Notes: generated by a model not told the origin, from the letters alone. DNA of 64,000 nucleotides from Candidatus Magasanikiibacteriota bacterium (GCA_963802255.1 CAWDHY010000001.1:363842-427841); one strand, 5' to 3'. Numbered from the stretch's first letter, positions 15,629-63,055 are shown. Numbers and translations are program-made.

Positions 15629-17272
<1,644 letters not shown>

Positions 17273-18300: not shown

Positions 18301-18306
18301 ATCCCT

Positions 18307-19948: not shown

Positions 19949-21415
19949 ATGAAGACCATCGCTATGATTCTCTGGGTTGCTCTGGTCGTGATCGCGGCGA
20001 GCGCGTGTGGTGTGGAGGCGGGCGACGGTGACTTCACCGCGACCGCGGACACCGACAGCGACACCGACTCCGACACGGATTCGGACAGCGATTCGGACAC
20101 CGACAGCGACACCGACTCCGACACGGATTCGGACAGCGATTCGGACACCGACAGCGACACCGACTCCGACACGGACGAGTGTACGGATGGCGAGGTCGGG
20201 TGCACCGACGACGACTCCTTCCACATCTGCGTGGATGGTCAGTGGTCGGCGGAACTCGATTGCGCCGGCGACCTCGTCTGCGAAGACGGTGAGTGTGTCG
20301 ATCCGGGTTCGGACTGCGAGGACGGCGAGAGTGAGTGCACCGACGACGATTCGTACCACGTGTGCGTCGGCGGCAGCTGGTCGGCAACGATTGACTGTGC
20401 CGATGGCTACGAGTGTGCGGAAGGTCAGTGCGAGCTCGTTCAGATCTGCGATCCCGGTGACGAGCGCTGCTACGGCGGAAACGCCCAGCAGTGCAACAGC
20501 GCCGGAACGGCTTGGGCCACCATCGATTTCTGCGCCTCCGATGAGGAGTGCGTGGTGGTGGGTGGCGAGGCTGAGTGCGTCGCGGACACGATTTGCACCC
20601 CCTACGACGAGCGCTGCTACGGCGGAAACGCCCAGCAGTGCAACAGCGCCGGAACGGCTTGGGCTGTCATCGACTACTGCGCCTCCGATGAGGACTGCGT
20701 GGTGGTGAGCGGTGAGGCCGAGTGCGTGTCCGATTCTATCTGCACCCCCTACGACGAGCGCTGCTACGGCGGAAACGCCCAGCAGTGCAACAGCGCCGGA
20801 ACAGCTTGGGTCACCATCGACACCTGCGGCTCCGACGAGGAGTGCGAGATGGTGGGTGACGAAGCCGAGTGTCACGAGTGCGGCGCATTCAACAGCTATG
20901 ACTGTCCCAGCGGGGAAACCTGCGAAGAGGGACAGTGCGTAGGCGGCGATGACGACGAGTGCATCGTCGGCGACCCGGCACATCAGTGCGACGAAGGGTA
21001 CGCCTGTGTGGATGGCGAGTGTGTGGAGGCCGACTGCACGGGCGCGACTGATTGTCCGACAGGGCAGGTCTGCCACATCCTCGGAACGCGCTTCGAGACC
21101 GTGGGTAGCGAGATCTACGGGTACAAGATCGACGGCGTTTGCGCTTCGGCCCCGTCCGGTACCGCCGAGTGTTGGGACAGGGACTGGGACGGCAGCGCCC
21201 TGACGATCGGCGGAGTGTGTGAGCTGTTCTACAGCGAGTACTCCCCGGACGTCTGGTACTCCTACCAGAGCACCCCGCACTGCCAGGGTTCGTCCTGGCA
21301 CAACCCGATCCCAGAATGCTGTATCCGGGACAGTATGGACAAGTGCGTCAAGCATACGGTTTCCACCGGCTTGGGCACGATCATGTCCAGCTCCTGGATC
21401 GCCCGCGTTATCTAG
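19949..21415 (+). CDS. Lipoprotein, (S/T)D-repeat Cys-rich family member 2 (488 aa)
   Basis: Signal/lipobox VVIAASACG; SD/TD tract; three near-identical about 40-aa Cys modules (CxPYDERCYGGNAQQCNSAGTAWAxIDxCASDEECVVVxGEAECV); C-terminal ECWDRDWDGSALTIGGVC...IPECC domain shared with family. Confidence 0.65.
   Translation: MKTIAMILWVALVVIAASACGVEAGDGDFTATADTDSDTDSDTDSDSDSDTDSDTDSDTDSDSDSDTDSDTDSDTDECTDGEVGCTDDDSFHICVDGQWSAELDCAGDLVCEDGECVDPGSDCEDGESECTDDDSYHVCVGGSWSATIDCADGYECAEGQCELVQICDPGDERCYGGNAQQCNSAGTAWATIDFCASDEECVVVGGEAECVADTICTPYDERCYGGNAQQCNSAGTAWAVIDYCASDEDCVVVSGEAECVSDSICTPYDERCYGGNAQQCNSAGTAWVTIDTCGSDEECEMVGDEAECHECGAFNSYDCPSGETCEEGQCVGGDDDECIVGDPAHQCDEGYACVDGECVEADCTGATDCPTGQVCHILGTRFETVGSEIYGYKIDGVCASAPSGTAECWDRDWDGSALTIGGVCELFYSEYSPDVWYSYQSTPHCQGSSWHNPIPECCIRDSMDKCVKHTVSTGLGTIMSSSWIARVI
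20048..20170 (+). repeat. 48-nt tandem repeat about 2.5 copies (SD/TD dipeptide tract)
   Basis: gacaccgacagcgacaccgactccgacacggattcggacagcgattcg repeated. Confidence 0.75.
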
Positions 21416-21646: not shown

Positions 21647-21675
21647 TTGACAACAGAGCCAAAAAGTGTTAATAT
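21647..21675 (+). promoter_or_regulatory. Sigma70 promoter TTGACA - 17 nt - TAATAT, extended -10 (TGt)
   Basis: cTTGACAacagagccaaaaagtgtTAATAT about 300 nt upstream of gene 21973. Confidence 0.5.
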
Positions 21676-21716
21676 TTAGTGTTACAATTTATGTGTATTT
21701 CAAGCTGATTAGCAAT

Positions 21717-21775
21717 TGAGAGAGGTGGCTAATTTTGGCGAAATACAGCGCAAAACCTCTCTCGGCGAGGTTTTT
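21717..21775 (+). promoter_or_regulatory. Conserved leader element: GAGAGAGG ... CCUCUCUC hairpin followed by a short GC stem and U-run (attenuator-like)
   Basis: tGAGAGAGG (21717-21725) is perfectly complementary to CCTCTCTC (21756-21763), followed by ggcgaggTTTTTgttaTTTTT; same GA/CU motif pair as in leader 18341-18424. Confidence 0.35.
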
Positions 21776-21972
21776 GTTATTTTTATTGGCGTCAATATTT
21801 TCATGCTAAATTTTTTGGCTTGAAACAGGGACGCTTCCCCTGGCCGTACTCGCTTATGCGTAATTCGGCTTGAAGCTAAATATAATAGTACCTTGAAAAT
21901 TGAAGGGAACAAAAATAAACAATCGCGATTGGAATCGCGACAAACAGAATCGAAGGAAAAGAGGAGGAAAAG

Positions 21973-24723
21973 ATGAGAAAGTATTTGGTCTGGTTTGCGA
22001 TCGTCCTGTCTGCGACCGGATGTATCTCGCCGAACATGGGGGGAAACGGAGACGAGTACAAGTTCGGCAGTGACACGGACACGGACACGGACACCGACAC
22101 GGACACCGACACGGACACCGACACGGACACCGACACGGACACCGACACGGACACCGACACGGACACCGACACGGACACCGACACGGACACCGACACGGAC
22201 ACCGACACGGACACCGACACGGACACCGACACGGACACCGACACGGACACCGACACGGACACCGACACGGACACCGACACGGACACCGACACGGACACCG
22301 ACACGGACACCGACACGGACACCGACACTGGTGACGGTGGCCCGGATGGTGGAGACACTGATTCGGGCGTTGACTGCATCAGCGGGCCGTGTTGCAACGC
22401 GGGCGGATTCTTCCAACCCGAAGGATACCCTTGCGCTTCGTTCGCCGAGTATCAATGCAATGGGACTCTTTGCGGAGCCGACGCTCAGTCGCGCTCAGTG
22501 ACGCAGTTCTGCTCGGGCGAAAGTTTCGAGTGCGACGGCGATACGTTCGAGACGGTCTGGGCGACAATCCAGAACTGTTCAGACTCCGACGTCTGCAACA
22601 CCGATATGGTTTCTTATGCCGAGTGCGCCGAGTGCGACCTTGGTTGTGAAGATGTCGGTGGAATCGGCGACTGTCTTTTGGAGTGCGATCCTGCCGACGA
22701 ATGCTGCGGATCCGATGGTCTCTTCGAGATCGTGGGCACCCTTTGTGGTGATTCATCCGACAGCGTGTGCGACGGAGCGGATACTTGCGACGGCGCCGGT
22801 GTGTGCCTCGAGAATATCGAGCCAGACACGACTGAATGCCACGCATCTGCCGGAGATTGCGACATCACGGAATTCTGTGATGGCGCTGGCGCTTGTCCTA
22901 CCGATACGTTCGAAGCGGCGCTTATTGAGTGCCGTCCTTCCGCTGGTGTTTGCGATATCGCTGAGTACTGTACCGGCGATTCGCCGGCTTGTCCTTCCGA
23001 TGAGGTGGAGTTCACGAGTTTGCCCTGCGACAGCTGGGCAGAATATCAGTGCTTCGCCGGAACCGGAGATGGATGCGGAGCTGACGCTCAAGCGCGTTGG
23101 GCTACGCAGTACTGTGGCGGTGGGGTTTCGTGCGATGGCAGTATCTTCAGTACCGCCTGGATGACTATCCAGAATTGCGGTGATGATGATATTTGTTTCA
23201 CCGATACCTTCTCCTACGCCGAGTGTGAGGTCTGTGATGTCGGCTGTACGGATGGTGAATGTGATGATCTGCCTGACGGCGGCGCTGACACCGACACCGA
23301 CACCGACACGGATACGGATACGGACACGGACACGGATACCGACACGGATACCGACACGGATACGGATACCGACACGGATACCGACACGGATACCGATACC
23401 GACACCGATACGGATACCGATACGGACACGGACACGGATACGGATACCGATACCGACACGGATACCGACACGGATACCGATACGGACACGGATACCGACA
23501 CGGATACCGATACGGATACCGATACGGATACCGATACGGATACCGATACCGATACCGATACGGATACCGATACTGGGGACTGCGTCCCTGGCGATATGTG
23601 CTGTGATCTCGCCGGCAATTTCGAGCCGGCCGGTACGTCCTGCGGTGACACCACTGCTTCGACCTGCGACAACCCCGACACCTGTGATGGTGGCGGCAAC
23701 TGCGAGTCGAACTACGAGCCGACTACCACTGTTTGCCGCCCGGCGGCAGACATCTGCGACGTGGATGATTTCTGCAATGGTGCAGGACTCTGCGATCCGG
23801 ACGAGGTGGAGCTCGAGTTCGTGGAGTGCCGAGGTTCTCTCGGTGCTTGCGACGCGGTGGATTACTGCGATGGTATCACCACATCGTGTGATGACGGACT
23901 GCTCTTCGGCGATGTCTGCCACGCTTCGGCCGGCGACTGTGATCCCGAGGAGACCTGCGACGGTGCGTTGCCGGATTGTCCGGTCGACACGCTCGAGCCA
24001 GACACCACGGTATGCCGTGCGGAAACCGGTGACTGCGACAACGCCGAGACCTGTACCGGTAGCTCTGCTACCTGTCCGGCCGACACGTTCAAGTCGCCGT
24101 CTACCATCTGCGATACCTCCTACGAGTTCAGATGCAATGGCTCGCTCTGCGGGTCCGATGCTCAGCGCAGACTGGTTCGCCAGTACTGTGACGGCACCGG
24201 TGCCGCCTGTGACGGGTCCATCTACTACAACAGCTGGTTGACGATCGAAAACTGCGACGCTTCCTCTGTTTGCATCGCGACTCCCATTTCTGCTACCTGC
24301 GACGTTTGCGGTTACGAGTGTCAGAACATTCCTGACGGTACCTGCGTCGGCGAAGAGGACGAACCCTGTGCTGAGCCTCCTTTCGAGGAGTGCGATGACG
24401 GGCTCGTCTGCACCGAAGGTATCTGCGGTACCGAACCCGATGGCGGGACGGACGGCGGAATCGACGGCGGCGCTGACACCGACACCGGATACCGATACGG
24501 ACACCGACACGGATACGGATACGGATACCGACACGGATACGGACACCGACACGGACACCGACACGGACACCGATACCGACACGGACACGGACACCGACAC
24601 GGATACCGACACGGATACGGATACCGATACGGATACCGATACGGACACCGATACGGATACCGATACGGATACCGATACGGATACCGATACGGATACCGAT
24701 ACTGGGGACTGCGTCCCTGGTGA
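21973..24723 (+). CDS. Lipoprotein family member 3, segment A of a 4.2-kb gene (real frame ends at a +1 frameshift about 24487; the ORF tail to 24723 is an out-of-frame read of the repeat as GYRYGHRHG...)
   Basis: Lipobox LSATGC followed by [16 protein letters not shown] (same post-Cys motif as 15629). About 42 consecutive TD dipeptides, Cys-rich modules (CRxxxGxCDxxExCxGxxxxCPxD), second TD tract, first copy of the 909-bp block. Confidence 0.6.
22093..22326 (+). repeat. Perfect 12-nt tandem repeat (gacaccgacacg) x about 19.5, encoding (TD)n
   Basis: Exact head-to-tail copies over about 234 nt, read directly from the sequence. Confidence 0.9.
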
Positions 24724-25609
24724 TACGTGCTGTGATCTCGCCGGCAATTTCGAGCCGGCCGGTACGTCCTGCGGTGACACCACTGTTTCGACCTGCGACA
24801 ACCCCGACACCTGTGATGGTGGCGGCAACTGCGAGTCGAACTACGAGCCGACTACCACTGTTTGCCGCCCGGCGGCAGACATCTGCGACGTGGATGATTT
24901 CTGCAATGGTGCAGGACTCTGCGATCCGGACGAGGTGGAGCTCGAGTTCGTGGAGTGCCGAGGTTCTCTCGGTGCTTGCGACGCGGTGGATTACTGCGAT
25001 GGTATCACCACATCGTGTGATGACGGACTGCTCTTCGGCGATGTCTGCCACGCTTCGGCCGGCGACTGTGATCCCGAGGAGACCTGCGACGGTGCGTTGC
25101 CGGATTGTCCGGTCGACACGCTCGAGCCAGACACCACGGTATGCCGTGCGGAAACCGGTGACTGCGACAACGCCGAGACCTGTACCGGTAGCTCTGCTAC
25201 CTGTCCGGCCGACACGTTCAAGTCGCCGTCTACCATCTGCGATACCTCCTACGAGTTCAGATGCAATGGCTCGCTCTGCGGGTCCGATGCTCAGCGCAGA
25301 CTGGTTCGCCAGTACTGTGACGGCACCGGTGCCGCCTGTGACGGGTCCATCTACTACAACAGCTGGTTGACGATCGAAAACTGCGACGCTTCCTCTGTTT
25401 GCATCGCGACTCCCATTTCTGCTACCTGCGACGTTTGCGGTTACGAGTGTCAGAACATTCCTGACGGTACCTGCGTCGGCGAAGAGGACGAACCCTGTGC
25501 TGAGCCTCCTTTCGAGGAGTGCGATGACGGGCTCGTCTGCACCGAAGGTATCTGCGGTACCGAACCCGATGGCGGGACGGACGGCGGAATCGACGGCGGC
25601 GCTGACACC
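23572..25609 (+). repeat. Tandem direct duplication: two 909-bp near-identical copies (23572-24480 and 24701-25609) separated by a 220-bp TD-repeat tract (period 1129 bp)
   Basis: Copies align base for base from actggggactgcgtccctgg... to ...cgacggcggcgctgacacc. Only a few substitutions are visible (ggcgatatg vs ggtgatacg; actgcttcg vs actgtttcg). The antisense ORFs 23862-24107 and 24991-25236 are identical. Confidence 0.85.
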
Positions 25610-25765
25610 GATACGGATACCGATACGGATACGCGACACGGACACGGATACCGACACGGATACGGACACCGACACGGATACCGACACGGATACCGACACG
25701 GATACGGATACCGATACGGATACCGACACGGATACGGATACCGAACTCTGGGAGTGTGTGTCTGA
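24368..25765 (+). CDS. Segment B of the same gene (real coding about 24487-25634 in this frame; second copy of the Cys-rich block). The ORF-track N-terminus MLSLLS... is an out-of-frame artefact.
   Basis: The frame carries PDTDTDTD... then [25 protein letters not shown]... identical to segment A residues, then [11 protein letters not shown] followed by an RHGHGY out-of-frame repeat read after a second +1 shift near 25634. Confidence 0.5.
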   Translation: MLSLLSRSAMTGSSAPKVSAVPNPMAGRTAESTAALTPTPDTDTDTDTDTDTDTDTDTDTDTDTDTDTDTDTDTDTDTDTDTDTDTDTDTDTDTDTDTDTDTDTDTDTDTDTGDCVPGDTCCDLAGNFEPAGTSCGDTTVSTCDNPDTCDGGGNCESNYEPTTTVCRPAADICDVDDFCNGAGLCDPDEVELEFVECRGSLGACDAVDYCDGITTSCDDGLLFGDVCHASAGDCDPEETCDGALPDCPVDTLEPDTTVCRAETGDCDNAETCTGSSATCPADTFKSPSTICDTSYEFRCNGSLCGSDAQRRLVRQYCDGTGAACDGSIYYNSWLTIENCDASSVCIATPISATCDVCGYECQNIPDGTCVGEEDEPCAEPPFEECDDGLVCTEGICGTEPDGGTDGGIDGGADTDTDTDTDTRHGHGYRHGYGHRHGYRHGYRHGYGYRYGYRHGYGYRTLGVCV

Positions 25766-26213
25766 CACTGACTGCACTGATCCGGCTTTGCCCATCTGCT
25801 CACAGTTCCACATCTGCGTGGAGTGTGAGTACGGCGAAGACTGTTTCGTCGATGAAGGGTGTGGCAAGGAATCGTTCACCTGCGAACCCATTCCGAAGCC
25901 CGCAGTGGGTGAGTATCTGTTCTGTTGGGACCTCGATCCCGACGGCGACCCCCTCACTATCAACAGTACTTGTGATGACTTCGACGTCGTTGATGGCTGT
26001 GACTACTGGGGGCCGGTGCCCTGGCAGTACGAGGAAGGCGTAGGTATGCCGATTTGTGGCAGCTGCGATTGGGTCGTCGATCACTGTGAGGCGTGTGCCG
26101 AACAGGAACCCATTCCGGAGTGTTGCCTCAGCAATCAGTGGAACTTCTTTGAGCTGGATCCTGTGGAGCGGATTTGTCTGACGCAGGGACTGCTCATTGA
26201 ATTCATTCCATAG
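25497..26213 (+). CDS. Segment C of the same gene (real coding about 25634-26213: TD tract plus conserved C-terminal domain FCWDLDPDGDPLTINSTC...IPECC)
   Basis: Frame carries (TD)n then ELWECVSDTDCTD... and the family C-terminal domain; stop at 26211-26213. Confidence 0.55.
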   Translation: MLSLLSRSAMTGSSAPKVSAVPNPMAGRTAESTAALTPIRIPIRIRDTDTDTDTDTDTDTDTDTDTDTDTDTDTDTDTDTDTELWECVSDTDCTDPALPICSQFHICVECEYGEDCFVDEGCGKESFTCEPIPKPAVGEYLFCWDLDPDGDPLTINSTCDDFDVVDGCDYWGPVPWQYEEGVGMPICGSCDWVVDHCEACAEQEPIPECCLSNQWNFFELDPVERICLTQGLLIEFIP

Positions 26214-26260: not shown

Positions 26261-26312
26261 AAATCACCATGAGATTATCATTACTCTCTCTTTGATGATC
26301 TCAGTTGATACG

Positions 26313-26346
26313 CAAAACCCGTCTTTACCGGCGGGTTTTGCGTTTT
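26313..26346 (+). terminator. Rho-independent terminator CAAAACCCG-tctttaccgg-CGGGTTTTG + CGTTTT
   Basis: 9-bp stem followed by U-rich run; closes the GC-rich island. Confidence 0.6.
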
Positions 26347-26416: not shown

Positions 26417-27946
26417 TTGTTCAATTTAATGATATTATTTATGCGTATGAAATCACTTTTACCCTTAGATACAGATGCAAAACAGCATTTGTTTTGGAGC
26501 ATACTAGCCGTTTCATCCGTGGCCGTTTTTTGCACTGCCACTATTTGTTTTGGCTTATCGCTCGCATTGTATTTCTTTTCGTTTTTATTAATATTTCTCG
26601 CCACCATTATGCGGCCGGAGGCCGGTTTGTATGTTGTTGTTATCGGCACGATGTGGTTTGAAAGATACTTTACTCTCTTACCCATTACCGCAAATGGCGT
26701 GGATTACAAATTATATCCTTTAGATTTAGTTATATTATTTATAGTTTTAAGTGTCGGAGCGCGTCTTTTGGAAGGACGATTAAAGTGGAAGTTTAAAAAA
26801 ATTGATTTTTTTCTTATCGGATTCGGCATTGCCTGCACTTATGGAATGATTATCGCCATATCCCGTCATCTAAATTTAGCTTTAGCATTTGGAACATACA
26901 AAAATTATTTTATTTACGGGATTTTGTATTTTCTTGTTGCAGTTATCCTGCGGACAAAGGATGATTGGCTGAAATTTATGAAGGCGTTAACCGTCGGAGG
27001 AGCCGGGCTTTTTTTCTTTTTATTTTATGGTTTAATTGTTGGCAAAGGATTATGGAGCGAGTATACGCCGCTATCGACGGCCGGCGAACGTTTAATTGCC
27101 GGTACGCATATATTTTATTTTGTGATTTTTTTCTTTTGGCTGATATCATGGATTATCTGGCCGATTGCCAAAGAACACGCGAGAAGAAAAACATATAACA
27201 TTTTTATTTTTATCGCCTTGTCTCTTATCGGCGTTGCACTAGTCGTATCGCTGGTAAGACATTTGTGGATAGCGGTTGCGGCCGTCCTGTTATTTTGGGT
27301 GCTTTTTTTGCCGACAATTCGGAGGCGCTTGCGTTATTTATATATTGTTGTCGCCGTATCGGCTGTATCAGCTATATTAATGTTTGCCTACATAAATGTC
27401 GGAAAAATATTTTTTAAAGCGACCGGCGAATCATTTTCTAATACATCGCAGGTGCTTTCTGAGCGGACCGATGTGGAGTATGCAACCAGTGGCCAGGACG
27501 CCAGTTTTCGTTGGCGTTTATCAACCTGGAAGGTTGGCCTTTCCGCCTGGATGACTCATCCGTTTTTTGGCGTAGGCCTTGGATATGAAATTTATGGTTT
27601 GGACAATAACTGGCCTTTTCACATTGCTATGCGCGAGATCCACAACGATTATTTAGCCATTTTGTATCAACTTGGAGCAATCGGTTTTTTGGTTATTGTG
27701 GAGTGGATGATATATCTTTGGTATCAGTTTTTTAAAAACCGGTCTTCAATGCTTTCTTCGGATGATCCGGAAGAATCCAGATTATTTTTTACCTGGTGGA
27801 GCGTTGCACTAACACTAATGGCAGGTTTTACCATTTCCATTTATTGGGATGTAAATTTTTTCAACATTTGGTGGTGGATTGCGTTGGCGGCTGTAAGATT
27901 TTTATGGTTTAAATTTTCCGAATATGAGAATCCTGGAAATAAATAA
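26417..27946 (+). CDS. O-antigen ligase / Wzy_C-family polytopic membrane protein (WaaL/PglL-like)
   Basis: About 12 TM segments; periplasmic loop HIAMREIHNDYLAILYQLG typical of the Wzy_C/O-antigen ligase signature (H..NDYL); host-like AT-rich codons. Confidence 0.6.
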   Translation: MFNLMILFMRMKSLLPLDTDAKQHLFWSILAVSSVAVFCTATICFGLSLALYFFSFLLIFLATIMRPEAGLYVVVIGTMWFERYFTLLPITANGVDYKLYPLDLVILFIVLSVGARLLEGRLKWKFKKIDFFLIGFGIACTYGMIIAISRHLNLALAFGTYKNYFIYGILYFLVAVILRTKDDWLKFMKALTVGGAGLFFFLFYGLIVGKGLWSEYTPLSTAGERLIAGTHIFYFVIFFFWLISWIIWPIAKEHARRKTYNIFIFIALSLIGVALVVSLVRHLWIAVAAVLLFWVLFLPTIRRRLRYLYIVVAVSAVSAILMFAYINVGKIFFKATGESFSNTSQVLSERTDVEYATSGQDASFRWRLSTWKVGLSAWMTHPFFGVGLGYEIYGLDNNWPFHIAMREIHNDYLAILYQLGAIGFLVIVEWMIYLWYQFFKNRSSMLSSDDPEESRLFFTWWSVALTLMAGFTISIYWDVNFFNIWWWIALAAVRFLWFKFSEYENPGNK

Positions 27947-29144
27947 ATTTTATTATCGTCGAGGCGGTGCCGATCTTCATTTTTTAGACCTTTGTGATAT
28001 TTTGAAATCAAAAGGGGAGTCGGTTTCGATTTTTTCAATGAAGGATAAGCGCAATGAGCCGACGCCTTATGAAAAATATTTTGTTTCTAATATCGAATTC
28101 GGTTCATTGAATTTCGGCTCGTTGTCGCGTCCGTTACGGGTTATTTATTCACGCGAGGCAGCTAAAAATATTGAGCGTTTAATAAAGGATGAACGTCCTG
28201 ATATAGCTCACGCGCACCTTATTTATCATCATTTGTCTCCGTCTATTTTGTCGGTATTGAAAAAGGAGAAAATTCCCGTCGTAATGACTATACACGATTG
28301 GAAACCGCTTTGCCCGAATTATTTAATGTTTACGAATGGCTCCGTTTGTGAACGGTGCAGAGGCGGTCATTATTTTCAGTGCGCGAAGCATTCATGTATT
28401 CATCATTCGTTTCCTCAAAGCGTGCTGGCCTCATTGGAGGCGTACATACATCATGCCAAAAAATATTACGAAGAGTATGTTGATTTATATATTGCGCCAA
28501 GCAATTTCGTGAAAGAGATGTTTGTTAAATGGGGTTTTCCGGAAAAAAAGATTGAAGTAATTCCGCATTTTTTACCACCGACAATTGAGCGGGTCAACAG
28601 CGTCACCCAACCCCCTAGAGAACCGAGCTTCGCTTTTGTCGGGAGAATTAATGAAGAAAAGGGTGTCCAGACGCTGGTTAAACAATGGGTGGAGAAAAAA
28701 ATTCCTTATTCACTGCATGTATTTGGCGGCGGTCCGCTATTTTTATCTTTGAAAAATATTGTGGATAAGTCCGGTATGAATAACATTTTTTTGCATGGAG
28801 CAATGTCGCGTGAAGATGTGGCCAAATATTTAAGACAGATGACGGCGATTATTATTCCCAGCGAATGGTACGAAATTTTTGGCTTAGTCGCTATTGAAGC
28901 TTGGTCGCAAGGCATACCGGCGATTACTTCAACATTCGGTTCTTTGCCGGAACTTGTAAAAAAATCAGGGGCCGGAATTTCTTTAGATCTGGAAGGCGAT
29001 AATTTATTTAACACACTGCAAAAAATATCTGATATCACATACAGGCAAAATGCAGTTGAGTATATGGCAAAAAATCATTTTTCTGATGAATACTATCTTA
29101 GTTTAAAGAAAGTTTTTCAAAAAGCGCAATCTTTAGCCAGATAA
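27924..29144 (+). CDS. Glycosyltransferase family 4 (GT-B fold)
   Basis: C-terminal EWYEIFGLVAIEAWSQGIPAITSTFGSLPELV matches the GT4 E-x7-E nucleotide-sugar binding region. Confidence 0.75.
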   Translation: MRILEINKFYYRRGGADLHFLDLCDILKSKGESVSIFSMKDKRNEPTPYEKYFVSNIEFGSLNFGSLSRPLRVIYSREAAKNIERLIKDERPDIAHAHLIYHHLSPSILSVLKKEKIPVVMTIHDWKPLCPNYLMFTNGSVCERCRGGHYFQCAKHSCIHHSFPQSVLASLEAYIHHAKKYYEEYVDLYIAPSNFVKEMFVKWGFPEKKIEVIPHFLPPTIERVNSVTQPPREPSFAFVGRINEEKGVQTLVKQWVEKKIPYSLHVFGGGPLFLSLKNIVDKSGMNNIFLHGAMSREDVAKYLRQMTAIIIPSEWYEIFGLVAIEAWSQGIPAITSTFGSLPELVKKSGAGISLDLEGDNLFNTLQKISDITYRQNAVEYMAKNHFSDEYYLSLKKVFQKAQSLAR

Positions 29145-29151
29145 TTTTTTT

Positions 29152-31200
29152 ATGAAGCCCGCTTACCCGCGACAATTTAACAGAAGTTTGTCGCTAATAA
29201 TAATGGCGGTTGCTTTTATTTTTTATCTGTCTTATTCTTCTCCGGCCAAAGCGCAGACCGTAAATGATTACCCGAGAATGGCAAACCTTTATTTATATTC
29301 GCCGATTCGTCAAAGTGACGTGCCTTTGCTCGCCAAGTGGGATGTGCTTATTCTGCACATGCTGGCTCAGCAAAATAGCGCGGAGCAGATCCGTCAAATT
29401 AGGCAGATAAATCCTAATATTAAAATTCTTGTATATATTACCTCTCAGGAATTTCCGATAAACAAGCACGCCGAATGGGATACGAATCCCAACGGCTTAT
29501 TTAAACGCCTGCTTCGCGGAATTACCGATGAAATGTGGCTGCGCGATAACGATGGGGCCCATGTTGTTTTTTGGGATACCGCTTGGATGCTAAATGTAAC
29601 CGATTTTCCCGGAAATGGAAAAAAATGGAATGATTATTTATCGGATTTTGTAGTTAACGAACTGCTTTCTTCTGGTTTGTGGGATGGTGTTTTTTACGAT
29701 AATACCTGGTCAAATATTTCCTGGCTGAACGGCGGAGCGATAGATGCAAACCGTGATGGTCAGAATGATAAGGCGGCAAGTTTAGATAGTGCATGGCAGG
29801 CGGGTATGAGTAAGCTTTTTAAACTTACGCGCGAAAAATATAACAAGCCGTTAATTATTGTAGGTAATGGCGACAGGGGATATTACAGCGATATCAATGG
29901 TATATATTTTGAAAATTTTTCCACAAACAGTTATCTCTCATGGGAGGAAAAAATGCGGCTGTATGGTTTATCGTCAAATACCAGCCGAGAACCTCAAGTA
30001 GCTATTCTTGGAAACACATCGGCCGATACCGCAAAGGCGCAGGCCGATTTCAGTAAAATGCGTTTTGGTTTAGCCAGTTCTCTTCTGGAAGATGGGTATT
30101 ATAGTTATGACGCTGGCTCAAATAGTCACGCGGAAAAATGGTGGTATGACGAATATAATGTGAATCTTGGCGAGCCGATGGGAGAGGCAACATCAATGAG
30201 CGGCAATGATAATTATGTTAAAGATGTTTGGCGTCGCGAATTTACTAATGGTCTGGCGGTTGTAAACTCACTGGCGGAAGAAAAAGAAGTTGATCTGGGC
30301 GGAGAGTTTGAAAAATTAATCGGCACTCAGGATTCAAAAGTTAACGACGGCGGTATTGTCAGTAAAATTAAACTGGCGGCAAAAGATGGTTTGTTAATGT
30401 TAAAAACTTATCAAACGGTGAAAGATCTGGTTTTTGTTAACGGCTCGTTCGTCCGATTTGTAGATTATTTAGGCCAGAGAGTGCGTAATGGATTTTTTGC
30501 TTATGACTCCAAATACCCCGGCGGCGCGCGTGTATATTCGGCTGATATTGATGGAGTCGGTGATGATGAAACAATTGTTGCAAGCGGGGCGAAATTTGAG
30601 ATATTTAACAGTAGTGGAGAGCGCTGGTTTAATGATTATCCGTTTGGCGGTAATTTTGAAGGCGACATCAGAATATCCGTAAATAAATTATTTGAAAAGC
30701 AATTGCAGGATCAGATCGTCATTGCGCCAAGTTTTGGTGAAAAAATAATAATGTACAATTATCATGGAGCTGTAATGCAGGGCGGGTATACTCCGTTTGA
30801 TCCGACGAAATATGTCGGCGGATTTTCCGTGGCGGCGGCTCTTTTAGACGGGCCGGGGAAACCCGGCAGTGTTGTGGTGGGGGTGGGGAAAGGAAAACCG
30901 GCCGAAGTTTTAATTTACGACAATCGCATATCTCAATTAAAAAAACGTTTTTATCCTTATGAAAAAACGTTTAAGGGCGGTTTATACGTCGCCACCGGAG
31001 ATGTGACCGGAGACAACAGAGATGAAATAATTGTCAGCGCGGTATCAGGAACGGATAAATCAATTAAAGTTTTTGACGGTAATGGAAAAAAATTATCTGA
31101 ATTTAAACCCAGCGGCCTTTTTGGCTCAGCCGGAACAATGGTTGGTACGGTTGATATTAATTTTGACGGTAAAATGGATATCGCCGTAATTAGTTTATAA
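29152..31200 (+). CDS. Secreted protein: N-terminal TIM-barrel-like glycoside-hydrolase-like region, C-terminal FG-GAP/VCBS-like repeats
   Basis: Signal peptide ...SYSSPAKAQ; C-terminal repeats DIDGVGDDETIV, GDVTGDNRDEIIVSA, DINFDGKMDIAVI (FG-GAP-like Ca-binding loops). The hydrolase assignment is tentative. Confidence 0.5.
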   Translation: MKPAYPRQFNRSLSLIIMAVAFIFYLSYSSPAKAQTVNDYPRMANLYLYSPIRQSDVPLLAKWDVLILHMLAQQNSAEQIRQIRQINPNIKILVYITSQEFPINKHAEWDTNPNGLFKRLLRGITDEMWLRDNDGAHVVFWDTAWMLNVTDFPGNGKKWNDYLSDFVVNELLSSGLWDGVFYDNTWSNISWLNGGAIDANRDGQNDKAASLDSAWQAGMSKLFKLTREKYNKPLIIVGNGDRGYYSDINGIYFENFSTNSYLSWEEKMRLYGLSSNTSREPQVAILGNTSADTAKAQADFSKMRFGLASSLLEDGYYSYDAGSNSHAEKWWYDEYNVNLGEPMGEATSMSGNDNYVKDVWRREFTNGLAVVNSLAEEKEVDLGGEFEKLIGTQDSKVNDGGIVSKIKLAAKDGLLMLKTYQTVKDLVFVNGSFVRFVDYLGQRVRNGFFAYDSKYPGGARVYSADIDGVGDDETIVASGAKFEIFNSSGERWFNDYPFGGNFEGDIRISVNKLFEKQLQDQIVIAPSFGEKIIMYNYHGAVMQGGYTPFDPTKYVGGFSVAAALLDGPGKPGSVVVGVGKGKPAEVLIYDNRISQLKKRFYPYEKTFKGGLYVATGDVTGDNRDEIIVSAVSGTDKSIKVFDGNGKKLSEFKPSGLFGSAGTMVGTVDINFDGKMDIAVISL

Positions 31201-33696: not shown

Positions 33697-34340
33697 AAAA
33701 TTTTTTTTAATTCCTCCAAGTCAGCACTCCATTTTTTCCCATCAAACCATTCTACGCCGGAAAATTGCAGTTTGTAAATTGCCGCAGAATTTCGTGCACT
33801 GCCTAAACAAATAAACTTTTTCCCGTTTTCCTTGGCTTGGATAATTGCTTTCGTCATCATGCCTATGCCTAAATTATTTATAACGGTTTTTAGATCGTAA
33901 AACGGATAACCATAGTGAAACCAGTCAGAGTTTTCAAAGCAAATGCAATAGCCGATTGGCTTCTCTTCCAAGGAATATAACAGCAAAGAATTAAAATTGC
34001 TTTTTTTATCCGTAATTAACTCTTTTATCTTGTTTGCTGAAAAAGTTTTTGGTCCGAATTTATTAGAATAAAAATCATAGCCCAGTTTATGGATGTGCCA
34101 ATTATAATTTGGATGGGGGAGAGGTACATTTTCAAGCCGAATATTTTCCGTCTTTTTCAGTACACGCCGGTTTTCACTGGATAATTCAAATTTATCTAAA
34201 TCAACCCGCACGCTTCTTGTTTGAGTCATATGGCCCCTGTTTAGGCGGGTAAAAACAAAGCCGTGCTCATACATGGCGTTTATGTTTGAATCGGAAAAAT
34301 CAGTAATTGTTTTTTCATCCCAAGAAAGGTAATCGCTCAT
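33693..34340 (-). CDS. Hypothetical protein; possible GNAT-fold aminoacyl-transferase (FemAB/ATE-like). Tentative.
   Basis: ORF between mraY and the Mur ligase; start chosen at MSDYLSWDEK to avoid overlap with mraY; only weak similarity by eye. Confidence 0.35.
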   Translation of the reverse strand: MSDYLSWDEKTITDFSDSNINAMYEHGFVFTRLNRGHMTQTRSVRVDLDKFELSSENRRVLKKTENIRLENVPLPHPNYNWHIHKLGYDFYSNKFGPKTFSANKIKELITDKKSNFNSLLLYSLEEKPIGYCICFENSDWFHYGYPFYDLKTVINNLGIGMMTKAIIQAKENGKKFICLGSARNSAAIYKLQFSGVEWFDGKKWSADLEELKKIL

Positions 34341-34345
34341 ATTTT

Positions 34346-57906: not shown

Positions 57907-59997
57907 ATGGCGGAGGGATTAGTATATATTTTTATGCGTAAAAAATTGGAATTGGCCATAAAAATTTGTATTTACATTACATTTTTTGTGCCACTCGTCG
58001 TTATCCCAAGTTCATTCATTTTTCCGTTTATCGTACCAAAAGTTGTTTTTTTCAGAACGCTTGTTGAAGTTATGTTGGGCGCCTATGTCCTGCTTCTCAT
58101 GATCAACTGGAAGGAATACAAACCGCAAATTACACCGCTTACGCTGGCGGTTTTTATTTTTTACATTGTAAGTTTTGGATTATCTACAATTTTCGGCACA
58201 GATCCATATCATAGTTTTTGGGATAATCACGAACGCATGCTCGGTTTTTTTACTATCATACATTATTTTGCCTACTATTTTTTGTGCAGCAAATTTTTTC
58301 GCACCTGGACAGAATGGAAATGGGCGCTGCGTTTTTTCCTGTTCGCCGGAACGGCCGTTATGTTTGTGGGGCTGTTGCAGGTGGGCAATCCGCAGTTATT
58401 GCTAAACCAGGGAGGCACGCGTGTGGCGAGTACCTTAGGCAACCCGATTTATGTCGGCGGTTATGGGTTGTTTTTGCTTTTTTCCGCTTTTCTACTGATG
58501 ATGAAAGATAAAAATACGATTTGGAAATATGTTTATGCTTTCTTCATGTTTTTCGCGGTATTGGGAGTGTTTTTTAGCGGAACACGAGGGTCGATGCTGG
58601 GGTTGCTTGCCGGTGTTGGAGCAACCATGCTTATTTACGCGTTGGCATTGAAAAAATTCCCGAGAACCAGGTACTCACTTTTTGGTTTGATGGCTTTAAT
58701 TGTTTTGACAGTAGGCGTGCTATATGCGAACCGGCAAACAACTTTTGTCAGTAACATCCCGGCAGTCGGGCGTGCGATTAATACTTCGCTTGCCGATGTC
58801 ATGGCCAGTCCGCGTTGGATTGCCTGGGAAATTTCCTGGCAAAGTTTTATTGACCGCCCGGTTTTTGGTTGGGGTCCGAATAATTTTTTCTATGCTTTCA
58901 ATAAGCACTATAATCCACGTTCCCTTAATTTCGGTTATGGTGAAACATGGTTTGATAACGCGCACAATATCATAATGAATACATTGGCCGTTCAAGGAAT
59001 TATCGGTCTGTTGTCATATTTGGCTTTGTTCGGCGTGGGCGCATATGTATTGGTTGTCGCTTATCGCAGGGGATCCATTGATTATCATTTGCTGGCAATC
59101 GGCTGTGGTTTTTTAACCGCTCATTTTATCGGCAACATCACTGTGTTTGAAAATATTACGTCATATTTGTATTTTATGTTCTGGTTGGCGATGATAAACG
59201 CGTTAACTGTGCGCGCGAGCAGTGTGGTGCCAGCTCAAATCGGTGAGGATAATATATCATCGGATAAAAAAATCGGTTATGCGATAATTTCCGTTGTGGG
59301 TTTAATCACTTTTATTGTATTTTTTATCTGTAATATTCAACCGGCCAGAGCGAATATGAAAACTCTGGACGCGATAAAAGGTCTTTCAACCGATCCGGTA
59401 CTTGGATTGGCAAGAGCAAAGGACGCTGTAAGTTTTGATTCCCCACACATTGACGATATCAGAAGCGACATTAGCCGAACTGCCACGCAACTCTTGTTCA
59501 GTGCAGGACAAAATATAAACCCTGAATTGGCGAAAAATATCAATGATCTCAGCTATGATGAAATTCTGAAGAATACGATGCTACATCCGATGGATATCAG
59601 AAACTATATTAGTCTGTCTCAAGTCGTTCAATTAAAGGCATATTTGGAAAATGCTCCGCAATATTTAACAGAGGCTGATTTATACCTGGAAAAGGCCTTA
59701 GCCTATTCTCCGAAACGTCAGCAGGTAATGTATTCATTAGCGATGCTAAAATATCAAATTGGGCAGATGGACCGGGCGGTAACTTTACTGGAACAAGCAA
59801 TAAGCGATAATTCGGCCATTGGAGAAAGTTATTGGAGATTGGCTTATCTTTACAAATTATCCAATCAAATAGATAAGGCAAATGAGGTAATGGAATTGGC
59901 TGAGAAAAATGAAGTAATATTTACCGACCAAGATAAGGCAAATATAGCGCAAATATTCCCGCCGGCGACTACGTCGCCGACGTCGGTTGTAAAATAA
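57907..59997 (+). CDS. Wzy_C/O-antigen ligase-like polytopic membrane protein with C-terminal TPR-like repeats
   Basis: Many TM helices, GVFFSGTRGSMLGLLAGV loop, C-terminal 230 aa soluble with TPR-like helical repeats (…YWRLAYLYKLSNQIDKANEVMELA…). Confidence 0.6.
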   Translation: MAEGLVYIFMRKKLELAIKICIYITFFVPLVVIPSSFIFPFIVPKVVFFRTLVEVMLGAYVLLLMINWKEYKPQITPLTLAVFIFYIVSFGLSTIFGTDPYHSFWDNHERMLGFFTIIHYFAYYFLCSKFFRTWTEWKWALRFFLFAGTAVMFVGLLQVGNPQLLLNQGGTRVASTLGNPIYVGGYGLFLLFSAFLLMMKDKNTIWKYVYAFFMFFAVLGVFFSGTRGSMLGLLAGVGATMLIYALALKKFPRTRYSLFGLMALIVLTVGVLYANRQTTFVSNIPAVGRAINTSLADVMASPRWIAWEISWQSFIDRPVFGWGPNNFFYAFNKHYNPRSLNFGYGETWFDNAHNIIMNTLAVQGIIGLLSYLALFGVGAYVLVVAYRRGSIDYHLLAIGCGFLTAHFIGNITVFENITSYLYFMFWLAMINALTVRASSVVPAQIGEDNISSDKKIGYAIISVVGLITFIVFFICNIQPARANMKTLDAIKGLSTDPVLGLARAKDAVSFDSPHIDDIRSDISRTATQLLFSAGQNINPELAKNINDLSYDEILKNTMLHPMDIRNYISLSQVVQLKAYLENAPQYLTEADLYLEKALAYSPKRQQVMYSLAMLKYQIGQMDRAVTLLEQAISDNSAIGESYWRLAYLYKLSNQIDKANEVMELAEKNEVIFTDQDKANIAQIFPPATTSPTSVVK

Positions 59998-60041: not shown

Positions 60042-61343
60042 ATGATTAACTCATTATTCATAAAATTAAACAAGTTTGTACCGGAAAAATGGAAGTGGGT
60101 ATTAGAACACGCTGGTTTTAAAAGATATTTTACCAATACCGGTTGGATGTTTTTTGGGCAGATGTTTTCTCTGGTTATCTCCTTTTTTATCGGCGCTTGG
60201 CTGGCGCGGTATTTAGGTCCGGAAAATTACGGCATCATTAGTTACGCGGTGGCATTTGTTGGGTTGTTCACATTCATTGCGTACCTTGGAGTTCACAATA
60301 TTTTATTGCGTGATTTAGTTAAATATCCGGAAAGAAAAAATGAATTATTGGGCACAAGTTTTTGGATATTATTTATTAGCAGTACGGTTGCTTTTTTCTT
60401 AATAGTGCTCGCGGCTTTTTTGTTCGAACCGACCGCGTTAAACCGTGGTTTGATAATTTTATACGCATCAACATTTTTGTGGTCTGCCTTTGGTATAATT
60501 AGTATTTTTTTTCAATCGACTGTACAGGCAAAAAAAAATGTTCTCGCCGCTGTAATTTCCGGCATAGTTGCGTCAATTTTAAAGATTATTTTAATTATTA
60601 CGGGGAAAGGAATTATCTGGTTGATGGCTATCTTTGTTATTGAATCATTGGTAATTTTAGTATTGTATATATCAAATTATAGAAAGAGCGGTTATAAGCT
60701 CAGTGACTGGAAGTTCAATCGTGAATTGGCAAAGCAAATTTTATCTGGCGCCTGGCTTTTGGCTCTGGCGGCGGCCGCCGGATATATATTTTTGCGTGTT
60801 GACCAAGTGATGATCAGAAATTTTTTAAATGAAACTTCGGTCGGGCTTTATGCCGCCGCTTTGCGATTAGTTGAAATTTGGTATTTTATTCCTGGAATAA
60901 TTTGTGCCTCTTTATTTCCCGCGATTATAAACGCCAAAAAAACGGAAGAAAAGAAATATTTGAGTCGATTAAAAAAACTTTATATTCTATTGGGTGGTAT
61001 TGCGGTGCTTATCGCAATTTTTCTTTCTGTTTTTTCCTACCGGATAGTTACTTTGTTGTTTGGTAGCGCATATATTGAGTCAGCTGCCATTCTTAAAATT
61101 TACGCATGGTCAGGCGTCGGTTATTTTTTAAATGTTGGTTTTTATCAATTTTTTCTTGCGGAAAACCGGTTAAAAGCAATTTTTTATTTTTATCTTTTTT
61201 TGATGATAATCAATATCGTTTTAAATTATGTTTTTATTTCCAGATTCGGTCTTATGGGCGCAGCCTGGGCCACGATGATTGCTTATCTATCCGGTCCGCT
61301 AATCTATATATTTTTAAGAAAAATTAACAATAGTTATGTATAA
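60042..61343 (+). CDS. Oligosaccharide flippase, Wzx/MOP (polysaccharide biosynthesis protein) family
   Basis: About 12-14 TM helices, N-terminal …TGWMFFGQMFSLVISFFIGAWLARYLGPENYG typical of the PST family. Confidence 0.7.
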   Translation: MINSLFIKLNKFVPEKWKWVLEHAGFKRYFTNTGWMFFGQMFSLVISFFIGAWLARYLGPENYGIISYAVAFVGLFTFIAYLGVHNILLRDLVKYPERKNELLGTSFWILFISSTVAFFLIVLAAFLFEPTALNRGLIILYASTFLWSAFGIISIFFQSTVQAKKNVLAAVISGIVASILKIILIITGKGIIWLMAIFVIESLVILVLYISNYRKSGYKLSDWKFNRELAKQILSGAWLLALAAAAGYIFLRVDQVMIRNFLNETSVGLYAAALRLVEIWYFIPGIICASLFPAIINAKKTEEKKYLSRLKKLYILLGGIAVLIAIFLSVFSYRIVTLLFGSAYIESAAILKIYAWSGVGYFLNVGFYQFFLAENRLKAIFYFYLFLMIINIVLNYVFISRFGLMGAAWATMIAYLSGPLIYIFLRKINNSYV

Positions 61344-62295
61344 TTTTAATCAAAAAAAAGTGGCCATCCCGGGTGGCGGGGGGTTTTTTGGAAGTCATAT
61401 AATAAGTAATTTAGAAAAAAGAACGAATTGTGAAATCTTATCTCCCAGGAGATCAGAAGGCTGGGATTTTCGAAGGCTTGACGATTGCCGTCATTTTTTT
61501 GAAATTAACAAGCCTGACGTCGTTATTAATTGTGCGGCTTGGCAGGGCGGTATCGGTTTTCATAATGGAAAACAGGCCGACCTATATTATGACAATCTTT
61601 TGATGGGAACTTTTTTAATGAAGGCCGCGCAAGAAAATGGCGTTGAGAAATTTGTAAATATTATTGCCGGTTGTTCCTATCCTGGTTACCTGGAAAAGGA
61701 TGAATTAAATGAAGCTGATTATTGGAACGGCGAAGTGCATGAATCAATTTTTAGTTATGGATTTTCAAGAAAAACAACGGCCGTTTATGGTTTGGCATTA
61801 AAAAAGCAAATTAATTTTAATTCAATCCATTTGATAATGGCTAATATGTATGGTCCGGGAAAACATTTTAATCCTGAGCAAAGCAAAGCTCTGGCCGGTT
61901 TGATAAAAAAAATATACGAAGCAAAGAAAAATAATTTGCCTGAAGTTGAAATTTGGGGTACCGGCAGGCCGATTCGCGACTGGCTTTATGTCAAAGACGG
62001 AGCCGAAGGTGTTTTAAAAGCCACTGAATTATATGATGATGTTGCGCCACTCAATATTGCTTCCGGCGTAGGAATTTCCGTAATTGATCTTGCTGAATTA
62101 ATAAAGAAAACGGTTGGTTATGAGGGCGATTTTGTATTTAATACAGATAAACCAGATGGTGCGATGAAGAAGACTTTTGGTGTTTCAAAAATGCGGGAAA
62201 AATTAAATTGGTCACCTCAGACATCAATTGAAAATGGGCTTAAGGAAACTGTTGAATGGTTCGTTAATAATTATGATTATGCAATCGGTCACTAA
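61336..62295 (+). CDS. GDP-L-fucose synthase-like NAD(P)-dependent epimerase/reductase
   Basis: GGGGFFGSHI Rossmann motif, ...INCAAWQGGI..., AGCSYPGY (SxxxY-type catalytic region) as in Fcl/GMER. Confidence 0.65.
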   Translation: MYNFNQKKVAIPGGGGFFGSHIISNLEKRTNCEILSPRRSEGWDFRRLDDCRHFFEINKPDVVINCAAWQGGIGFHNGKQADLYYDNLLMGTFLMKAAQENGVEKFVNIIAGCSYPGYLEKDELNEADYWNGEVHESIFSYGFSRKTTAVYGLALKKQINFNSIHLIMANMYGPGKHFNPEQSKALAGLIKKIYEAKKNNLPEVEIWGTGRPIRDWLYVKDGAEGVLKATELYDDVAPLNIASGVGISVIDLAELIKKTVGYEGDFVFNTDKPDGAMKKTFGVSKMREKLNWSPQTSIENGLKETVEWFVNNYDYAIGH

Positions 62296-63055
62296 AAAAA
62301 TTCTCATTATCGGAGCCAAGGGAATGCTGGGAAATGATCTTGTTAATTTTTTTAGTTCAAGATATACCGTATGCGCCGTTGATAAAGATAACTACAACGA
62401 TCATATCGGCGAGACATTTGATATTCTAATAAATGCAAATGGGAATAGCCGTCGTTTTTGGGCAAATCAAAATCCGCAACAAGATTATGACGCGTCCGTC
62501 TTTTCAGTTGAAAAGACTTTAAATGATTTTAAATTTGATAAATATATATTTATTTCTAGCAGTGATGTTTATAATTTTCACGGAGATCCTATTAAAAATT
62601 TTGAGGATATACGGATAGAAGAAGAAAAATTGGAGCCCTATGGCCTGCATAAATATCAAGCTGAAAATTTGGTCAAAACATTGCCCTCTTATTTGATTTT
62701 ACGATGCAGCGCAATGCTTGGAACACACTTAACGAAAGGGGTCGTCAGAGATATTCTTGATAAAAAGGATTTATTTGTTACAACAGATAGTTTTATACAA
62801 TTCATAACCACGTCGGCAGTAGCAGAAGTTATTCATGGGTTGTTAAACGCTGGCATCAATAACGATATGTTTAATTGCGGTGGCAGAGGAAGCGTGGTGG
62901 TAAAAAATATCATGGAGTTGGCAGGTTATGAGAGCAGCATATTACCGGAAGCAAAAAAACAAGAGTATGAAATGAACGTCGATAAATTGAGCAGGATTTA
63001 TAATTTAAATGAATCTCAAGAATATCTCGTGAATTATTTAACAAATATTAACTAA
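62279..63055 (+). CDS. NAD-dependent epimerase/dehydratase family protein (RfbD-like short form)
   Basis: ILIIGAKGMLGNDL Rossmann motif; start MQSVTKK at 62279 overlaps the previous gene's end. Confidence 0.5.
   Translation: MQSVTKKILIIGAKGMLGNDLVNFFSSRYTVCAVDKDNYNDHIGETFDILINANGNSRRFWANQNPQQDYDASVFSVEKTLNDFKFDKYIFISSSDVYNFHGDPIKNFEDIRIEEEKLEPYGLHKYQAENLVKTLPSYLILRCSAMLGTHLTKGVVRDILDKKDLFVTTDSFIQFITTSAVAEVIHGLLNAGINNDMFNCGGRGSVVVKNIMELAGYESSILPEAKKQEYEMNVDKLSRIYNLNESQEYLVNYLTNIN

Follow-up and report, generated by a model that had tools for sequence, protein, structure and literature searches.

Wzy_C proteins have been described from several systems of glycan transfer. In the ligases of CAZy family GT121, to which WaaL belongs, Arg191 and Arg265 bind undecaprenyl pyrophosphate (Und-PP) and His313 activates the acceptor, and the polymerase families of the same clan (members of GT122-GT137) have Asp or Glu where WaaL has His (PMC10920833). 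TacL (RafX) of S. pneumoniae is a Wzy_C protein that was proposed to ligate a Und-PP-linked teichoic acid polymer onto a membrane glycolipid (PMC5727136). Among the protein O-oligosaccharyltransferases (O-OTases), the PglL and PglS classes are recognised by the domains PglL_A and Wzy_C_2 (PMC3643930, PMC12645811), TfpO and TfpM lack these marker domains, and the known enzymes (TfpO, PglS, TfpM) are often encoded beside their substrates (PMC12645811). WsfB and PglL combine Wzy_C with C-terminal tetratricopeptide repeats (TPR), whereas those of WsaB are on a partner protein (PMC2943079). SdgA and SdgB are GT-B glycosyltransferases with an inserted beta-domain, DUF1975, which modify DSD motifs (PMC8561734). 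Here, we compare with these systems a locus in a 64,000-nucleotide stretch of DNA (the window) from Candidatus Magasanikiibacteriota bacterium (GCA_963802255.1 CAWDHY010000001.1:363842-427841). The locus comprises a gene for a Wzy_C membrane protein (open reading frame (ORF) 26417), a gene for a family 4 glycosyltransferase (GT4) and, upstream of both, genes for lipoproteins with Ser/Asp and Thr/Asp repeats, which a first-pass annotation had proposed to be the enzymes and the substrates of an O-glycosylation system.

Our preferred reading, to which a probability of roughly 0.55 is given, is that the Wzy_C gene belongs to a lineage-wide, ligase-type operon for an envelope glycan that is not tied to the repeat lipoproteins. 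As far as can be judged from its sequence, the locus would be a Und-PP-dependent ligase module in a group regarded as lacking lipopolysaccharide (LPS), a view held at slightly better than even odds.

All named homologues of the ORF 26417 protein come from Patescibacteria, and the nearest species-level genome is a Magasanikbacteria-like metagenome-assembled genome (MAG) whose Wzy_C protein is 82% identical. The 64-kb window has a GC content of about 40% and contains translation factors and scattered peptidoglycan genes (Mur ligases, an MraY-family transferase, MurB and a penicillin-binding protein), which is consistent with a placement in Patescibacteria. This group is regarded as LPS-less, and a role of the ORF 26417 protein as a lipid A-core ligase is therefore not expected; among the window ORFs covered by Pfam scans, none was assigned to lipid A, Kdo or the LPS core. 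Bacteria of the Candidate Phyla Radiation have been grouped among monoderm lineages (10.1101/2020.07.15.205187). Several MAG records that carry related loci (L012, L016, L020, L028-L031 and others) are titled 'uncultured Gammaproteobacteria' or 'uncultured Bdellovibrionales', and these titles look like mislabels, since the loci match Patescibacteria in gene content and low GC.

The Wzy_C assignment of the first-pass annotation holds: the Pfam domain covers residues 267-427 (E=1.2e-21; 77.5 bits against a cut-off of 31.7) and is matched by all 25 members of a family alignment (28-83% identity). The identical protein in the public gene call, encoded on a 628-kb contig, has 505 residues, not 509, which suggests that the true start is probably the ATG at 26429. 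Residues R225, R281, H282, R350, D361, S363, R367, H409 and N410 are invariant across the 25 aligned members. When the family profile was compared with solved structures, the only match was Cupriavidus WaaL (7TPG, E=7.5e-5); counted by position, R367 aligns to Arg265 and H409-N410 to His313-Asn314. A search of solved structures with the single sequence gave nothing useful, and no NCBIfam model matched the protein. The AlphaFold2 (AF2) model (pLDDT 87, pTM 0.89) has WaaL as its top Foldseek match (7tpg_B, E=3e-4, TM-scores 0.45/0.54), followed among the solved folds by the SEDS polymerase FtsW. The ORF 26417 protein also carries the HNx9GxxG motif. On this sequence evidence it looks like a Wzy_C protein of the ligase type, not of the polymerase type, and its ligase-type Arg/His set makes the en-bloc transfer of a glycan to some acceptor plausible.

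The alternative that the protein is a Wzy-type polymerase of repeat units, acting with a Wzz-like co-polymerase in a Wzx/Wzy-dependent pathway for a capsule or wall polysaccharide, is rather improbable and is ranked third among the roles considered for ORF 26417; the product would then be attached by the TPR-containing paralogue in the window or by an LCP-type enzyme encoded elsewhere. The fold match to FtsW is in line with a polymerase, and the two Wzy_C paralogues of the window would fit one polymerase and one ligase. However, the position of the WaaL His313 holds an invariant His in the ORF 26417 family, whereas the inverting polymerases of the clan have Asp/Glu there (PMC10920833). In addition, both paralogues have the ligase-type HNx9GxxG motif, and no co-polymerase is detectable in the window.

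With regard to the second gene, the GT4 assignment of the first-pass annotation holds: two Pfam domains are present, both above their cut-offs (Glycos_transf_1, 9e-23; Glyco_transf_4, 9e-21). The NCBIfam matches all lie far under the cut-offs (the best, 1.5e-15, is to a WaaB-type LPS galactosyltransferase), the PDB sequence matches are ordinary, generic GT4 enzymes, and the translation shows neither a signal peptide nor a membrane segment. By its sequence, the enzyme is a generic GT4. The suggested kinship with the staphylococcal enzymes of SD repeats was not borne out: DUF1975 had no Pfam match in the protein at E<=0.01, and no SdgA or SdgB chain could be recognised by name among its 49 solved-structure sequence matches. 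It is extremely improbable that the GT4 alone, in the manner of SdgA/SdgB, attaches sugars directly to the (S/T)D repeats while the lipoproteins are still in the cytoplasm, with the Wzy_C protein unrelated to that step. SdgA and SdgB are indeed GT-B enzymes acting on DSD motifs (PMC8561734), and the lack of a signal peptide and of membrane segments would suit such a role, but the two negative results above count against it, as does the presence of the GT4 beside Wzy_C in 77 of 77 related loci, nearly all of them without such repeat proteins upstream. A Cys-rich insertion at about residues 129-160 of the GT4, CPNYLMFTNGSVCERCRGGHYFQCAKHSC, resembles a zinc-binding loop; it is only partly kept in distant orthologues, such as that in L023 (+1).

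The GT4 start overlaps the Wzy_C stop by 23 nt, and a third gene, for a protein with GHL15 and FG-GAP regions, begins 8 nt past the GT4 stop; on account of this spacing, the three genes (26417-31200) form one operon. The third gene had been missed by the first-pass annotation, as had a hairpin upstream of the operon. The product of the third gene has a signal-peptide-like N-terminus and matches Pfam GHL15 (8.6e-37; 128 bits against a cut-off of 27) and FG-GAP_3 but no NCBIfam model. Foldseek searches with the AF2 model (pLDDT 88.5) ranked GH168 endo-1,3-fucanases best (E=5e-16, TM-scores 0.62-0.69), followed by GH66 and GH114, and the protein is, judging from this model, probably a secreted, endo-acting glycanase. 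The public annotation already contains the labels O-antigen ligase family protein and putative glycoside hydrolase. The hairpin lies in the 204 nt between the stop of the last lipoprotein ORF and the Wzy_C ORF; it is strong and terminator-like, with 8 G-C pairs in its 14-bp stem, a loop of 6 nt and the sequence TTTTATT after it. The surrounding spacer has 33% GC. Promoter-like sites are no commoner than in shuffled sequence. The features discussed are collected in Table 1.

Table 1. Positions, strands and supporting evidence of the main features of the window.
Feature	Position	Strand	Basis
Lipoprotein with (T/S)D repeats and Cys-rich domains (proposed substrate 1)	15629..17272	+	Translation, tandem repeats; GC content at third codon positions (GC3) 0.71
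Lipoprotein with (T/S)D repeats and Cys-rich repeats (proposed substrate 2)	19949..21415	+	Translation; GC3 0.81
Large TD-repeat, disintegrin-like Cys-rich lipoprotein gene(s) (proposed substrate 3)	21973..26213	+	Pfam Disintegrin 1.9e-14
Terminator-like hairpin between last lipoprotein ORF and Wzy_C gene	26310..26343	+	Predicted
Wzy_C / O-antigen-ligase-like polytopic membrane protein	26417..27946	+	509 aa; Pfam Wzy_C, WaaL profile match, AF2/Foldseek
Cytoplasmic GT4 (GT-B) glycosyltransferase	27924..29144	+	406 aa; Pfam Glycos_transf_1 and Glyco_transf_4
Secreted protein with GHL15 TIM-barrel glycanase-like domain and C-terminal FG-GAP beta-propeller	29152..31200	+	Pfam, AF2, Foldseek
Second Wzy_C protein, with C-terminal TPR repeats	57907..59997	+	Pfam Wzy_C 1.5e-20, TPR_19 2e-6
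Wzx/MOP-type flippase	60042..61343	+	Pfam Polysacc_synt 3.5e-24, Polysacc_synt_3 1.2e-22
Two NAD-dependent epimerase/reductase genes (nucleotide-sugar modification)	61336..63055	+	Pfam Epimerase 2.9e-36; RmlD_sub_bind and Epimerase about 1e-9

The comparison across relatives used 80 species-level loci that encode relatives of the Wzy_C protein (26-82% identity) and nine further contigs; the count of the GT4 pairing covers the 77 of the 80 loci with enough sequence. A GT4 homologue lies on the same strand, between -60 and +450 nt from the Wzy_C end, in 71 of these 77 loci and within 6 kb in all 77, and the pairing persists over the whole range of Wzy_C identity, down to 26%. The GHL15/FG-GAP gene is found downstream in 23 of 71 loci, and another 23 loci have, downstream after the GT4 (+2/+3), a gene for a right-handed beta-helix protein (NosD or pectate-lyase-like). 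By clustering of neighbours, a gene for a co-polymerase with two transmembrane (TM) segments, like Wzz and the polysaccharide co-polymerases (PCP), lies within about six genes of Wzy_C in 52 of 78 loci; nine of 11 sampled members match Pfam Wzz (best 5e-7) and three match GNVR. Further frequent neighbours are extra GT4 copies, DUF4012 and RmlC. The nearby co-polymerase, together with the GT4 copies and the RmlC, glycanase or beta-helix genes, as found in polysaccharide loci, would also suit the polymerase alternative. For the locus as a whole, the co-polymerase of the relatives and the secreted endo-glycanase-like enzyme point to a polysaccharide pathway, and the conserved core is the Wzy_C-GT4 pair, set in an apparent polysaccharide locus in many lineages.

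The repeat lipoproteins show a different distribution. Their homologues occur upstream of Wzy_C in only five of the 80 loci. These five, in which the position is directly upstream, come from the nearest species-level relatives (51-82% identical in Wzy_C); none of the other 75 loci has this arrangement. It is the C-terminal domain of the last lipoprotein (21973-26213) that is kept directly upstream of Wzy_C in the five close relatives, where the general synteny is also kept, with PALP, Mur ligase and MraY-family genes downstream. The adjacency is thus conserved within one clade, in which synteny is general, and the pair is far older and wider than the lipoproteins. Since the pair occurs in 77 of 77 loci and the lipoproteins in five of 80, the function of the pair cannot depend on them; this restriction to one clade, together with the terminator-like hairpin, indicates that they are not a defining partner. 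They are best read, from sequence and gene order, as a clade-specific neighbour that is separately transcribed. The co-conservation expected by the first-pass annotation therefore stands for the five closest relatives and fails for the wider family.

These data bear on the proposal that the Wzy_C protein is a protein O-OTase like PglL, PilO or WsaB, which would transfer a Und-PP-linked glycan, built in part by the GT4, to Ser/Thr of the (S/T)D repeats or to secreted proteins encoded upstream. We consider it unlikely. The enzyme class fits, as the ligase-type Arg/His set is common to WaaL (R215/R288/H338) and PglL (R224/R298/H349) (PMC3643930), the host is a Patescibacterium without LPS genes among the scanned window ORFs, and Wzy_C is present in WsaB and WsfB, which are S-layer O-OTases of monoderms (PMC2943079). 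Gene order also offers some encouragement: each of the five closest species-level relatives has an orthologue of the last lipoprotein directly upstream in the same orientation, the wider family shows an enrichment of genes for secreted proteins at this position, and known O-OTases often adjoin their substrate genes (PMC12645811, PMC3643930). On the other hand, PglL_A (PF15864) and Wzy_C_2 (PF11846) were matched by none of the 25 family members, even at E<=10, which places the family outside the PglL and PglS classes; O-OTase activity is still compatible with their absence, because TfpO and TfpM do without them too. The presence of the pair in 77 of 77 loci, against five of 80 for the lipoproteins, and the hairpin between the lipoprotein gene and the operon, also speak against the proposal, and the co-polymerase and other polysaccharide genes of the relatives, like the endo-glycanase-like enzyme, suit a polymer better than short protein glycans. 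None of the known O-OTase sequons is similar to D-T-D.

A further point against the proposal concerns the TPR, which Pfam finds neither in the ORF 26417 protein nor in its operon partners, and which are present, as in WsfB and PglL (PMC2943079), in the second Wzy_C protein (57907-59997). That gene adjoins the flippase gene, whose NCBIfam matches to MOP flippase models are weak. The Wzy_C protein with TPR, the Wzx flippase and the nucleotide-sugar enzymes named by the first-pass annotation are all recognised by Pfam at 57.9-63 kb. The two Wzy_C proteins have no detectable similarity in pairwise comparison, so neither can be classified from the other. If the window encodes a protein O-OTase, the second protein would, by analogy of architecture, be the better candidate.

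In sum, the kinship with PglL/PilO that the first-pass annotation had suggested holds for the Arg/His set and not for the marker domains, and O-glycosylation of the repeat lipoproteins is possible, the enzyme class being suitable and the proposed substrates having no specific support. The findings that it had named as speaking against its model were a WaaL-type classification together with an LPS core pathway and a lack of conserved adjacency; neither holds in full, as the scanned window ORFs contain no LPS genes and the adjacency is kept in five relatives.

Under the preferred reading of a ligase-type envelope-glycan operon, the cytoplasmic GT4 would add a sugar to a lipid-linked intermediate, either the Und-PP-linked glycan or a lipid acceptor. 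After flipping, the Wzy_C protein, as a ligase of the WaaL/TacL class, would take the glycan off Und-PP and pass it en bloc to an acceptor at the outer face, and the secreted GHL15/FG-GAP protein, whose fold is seen in the model, may trim or remodel the extracellular polymer. Because the host group is regarded as LPS-less, the first rank among the acceptors goes to a membrane glycolipid or some other general component of the envelope, which would by analogy give a TacL-like lipoglycan; this choice is tentative and is held at clearly less than even odds. A protein acceptor comes second, for which the S-layer O-OTases WsaB and WsfB could serve as precedent. In this context, a 759-aa membrane protein with a sulfatase domain (39430-41709), with weak matches to phosphoglycerol transferase models (LtaS/OpgB-like), may matter if the envelope has a glycolipid-anchored polymer.

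Several points weigh against the preferred reading. Neither a priming phosphoglycosyltransferase nor a glycolipid synthase was assigned in the window. The 7TPG alignment begins at chain residue 195, and the invariant R281, just before the aligned stretch, is a candidate counterpart of Arg191. The His versus Asp/Glu criterion rests on one comparative study and is no experimental discriminator. The polysaccharide context is taken from more distant relatives, since no Wzz/PCP homologue is detectable in the window. Furthermore, secreted-protein genes lie unusually often directly upstream of Wzy_C: Moranbacteria-type loci have the order co-polymerase, lipoprotein, barrel-like secreted protein, small secreted protein, Wzy_C and GT4, and 26 of 60 loci have, on the upstream side, a block whose GC content far exceeds that of the Wzy_C gene, in 22 of them within 1.5 kb. 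This arrangement resembles the pattern of an O-OTase next to its substrate and keeps a protein acceptor alive. A GC-rich block downstream of Wzy_C was found in 10 of 70 loci, and further away.

The boldest form of the protein-acceptor idea is that the Wzy_C-GT4 pair constitutes a protein O-glycosylation system of LPS-less episymbionts, with the secreted proteins encoded directly upstream as substrates. We regard it as quite unlikely. If it were true, the substrates of the Magasanikbacteria-like clade would have expanded into a fast-evolving array of Cys-rich lipoproteins, tethered by (S/T)D repeats and with deviant, GC3-rich codon usage, and glycans on the upstream-encoded proteins would decorate the host-contact surface.

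In the loci of Moranbacteria type (among L019-L089, genes -4 to +5, all on the same strand), the order given above continues with one or more GT4 genes, a beta-helix protein and DUF4012. The lipoprotein occurs in 29 of the loci, the barrel-like protein in 32 and the small secreted protein, which has a Cys-containing C-terminus, in 20; the three secreted proteins have no Pfam match. None of the relatives' Wzz, lipoprotein, barrel-like, small secreted, DUF4012 and beta-helix families was found in the window by tblastn or HMM searches.

Upstream of the hairpin, the genes for (S/T)D-repeat lipoproteins reported by the first-pass annotation are present; in the products of 15629-17272, 19949-21415 and 21973-26213, long (T/S)D repeats and Cys-rich domains come after a lipobox-like N-terminus. 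The core domain of the 19949-21415 lipoprotein has only three homologues in a set of 5.8 billion proteins and gives no taxonomic lead. The 21973-26213 region reads as three overlapping ORFs (21973-24723, 24368-25765 and 25497-26213), with the frame changing inside the TD repeats, which in the wrong frame read as GYRHGY…; in addition, about 1.1 kb of the region is duplicated within it (about 23.2-24.3 kb versus 24.4-25.5 kb). The splitting and duplication could reflect an assembly error in the repeats, a pseudogene or real variation.

The lipoprotein genes are part of a 14-kb block of genes for surface and secreted proteins (11894-26213) with a GC3 of 0.67-0.81, compared with 0.31-0.44 in all backbone genes tested. 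This block with its deviant codon usage is the more unusual feature of the region. The intergenic spacers within it have 33-39% GC, and similar high-GC blocks are found directly upstream of the Wzy_C gene in many independent assemblies of Patescibacteria. A foreign island or a chimeric assembly was rejected in its simple form, since the spacers have host-like low GC and independent assemblies show the same arrangement. The high GC3 is explained neither by a simple recent transfer nor by amino-acid composition; conceivable causes are repeated replacement and biased gene conversion at a recombination hot spot.

Some other genes of the block also have counterparts in relatives. The proteins of 13915-15384 and 18664-19714 combine a signal peptide and a coiled coil with a C-terminal domain that is rich in Gly and in beta structure and has an aromatic residue at its end, and the same barrel-like type is found in L006 (4214-5236), L007 (4638-5903), L009 (7951-8787) and L041 (about 3.0-1.8 kb upstream of Wzy_C). 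Their ends (…GGLMIGGEF, …LRLTLTF and …FVGVEF) resemble the C-terminal signal of outer-membrane beta-barrels, which is odd in a lineage regarded as monoderm, and proteins of this type have no Pfam match. The second of these genes consists of two overlapping ORFs on the plus strand (18664-19278 and 18959-19714), which look like one gene split by a frameshift, with the signal peptide and coiled coil in the first part and the barrel-like domain in the second; L004 (4117-5175) has an intact equivalent. In addition, 11894-13648 encodes an FHA-domain protein with one TM segment and 17420-18163, on the minus strand, a charged TM protein; the two share a similar Cys-containing C-terminal motif (…C…CC…C…) and have counterparts in L002, L004, L007 and L009. 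Directly upstream of the block, 6976-11706 encodes a highly charged, mostly coiled-coil protein of 1576 aa with a few TM-like segments and no Pfam match. Downstream of the operon, the peptidoglycan gene cluster includes, both on the minus strand, a gene with weak likeness to arginyl-tRNA-protein transferase (33693-34430; ATE_C, NCBIfam 5e-10, under the cut-off) and an ATP-grasp and NUDIX fusion (36320-38017), both of which are kept in relatives.

Many Patescibacteria, though regarded as LPS-less, keep genes annotated as 'O-antigen ligase', and nothing specific on O-antigen ligases or glycosylation in this group was found in the literature. In the loci compared here, one such gene, with ligase-type residues, is locked to a GT4 across many sampled lineages of Patescibacteria and often lies beside genes for secreted proteins and a co-polymerase. 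This gives a defined, testable module for the surface chemistry of episymbionts, with a lipoglycan, a wall polymer or a glycoprotein coat as its possible product. As regards the original claim, the link with the lipoproteins is a matter of gene neighbourhood in one clade and not a hallmark of the system.

Among the known systems, WaaL (GT121; 7TPG) is alike in its Wzy_C domain, its HNx9GxxG motif, a long loop near the C-terminus and the Arg265/His313 pair to which invariant residues of ORF 26417 align; it is also the best solved fold match, and the neighbouring GT4 gene recalls the core glycosyltransferases around waaL. Unlike WaaL, the ORF 26417 protein (about 15% identical, about 100 residues longer and outside all NCBIfam models) belongs to a host regarded as having no lipid A-core, so that its acceptor would be another one, and its operon partner is a secreted glycanase-like protein. 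By description, TacL is likewise a Wzy_C membrane protein of an LPS-less bacterium and the closest functional precedent for the preferred acceptor; it differs in its length of 397 aa, and the teichoic acid genes typical of its pathway were not identified in the window. PglL and PglS share the Wzy_C domain and the Arg/Arg/His set and are often encoded beside their substrate, whereas none of the 25 ORF 26417 family members has PglL_A or Wzy_C_2, no pilin gene is adjacent and the C-terminal TPR motif of PglL is absent. WsaB and WsfB (Geobacillus, Paenibacillus) are monoderm Wzy_C proteins encoded in a glycan cluster with glycosyltransferases and have the predicted role of linking a long glycan to a protein of the cell surface; unlike the present locus, theirs have an ABC transporter and lie beside rml genes and the S-layer gene. 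WsfB has TPR and WsaB the TPR partner WsaA, neither of which applies to ORF 26417, while its paralogue at 57907-59997 has TPR. SdgA and SdgB are alike as GT-B enzymes near genes for Ser/Thr-Asp dipeptide-repeat proteins, whereas the window GT4 lacks DUF1975 and is kept with Wzy_C whether or not repeat proteins are present. Finally, the third gene resembles the GH168 endo-1,3-fucanases and GH114 endo-alpha-1,4-polygalactosaminidases in its TIM barrel (E=5e-16 to 1e-6), its secretion and its endo-type likeness, and differs from them in its low identity (14-19%), its membership of the uncharacterised GHL15 family and its additional FG-GAP propeller.

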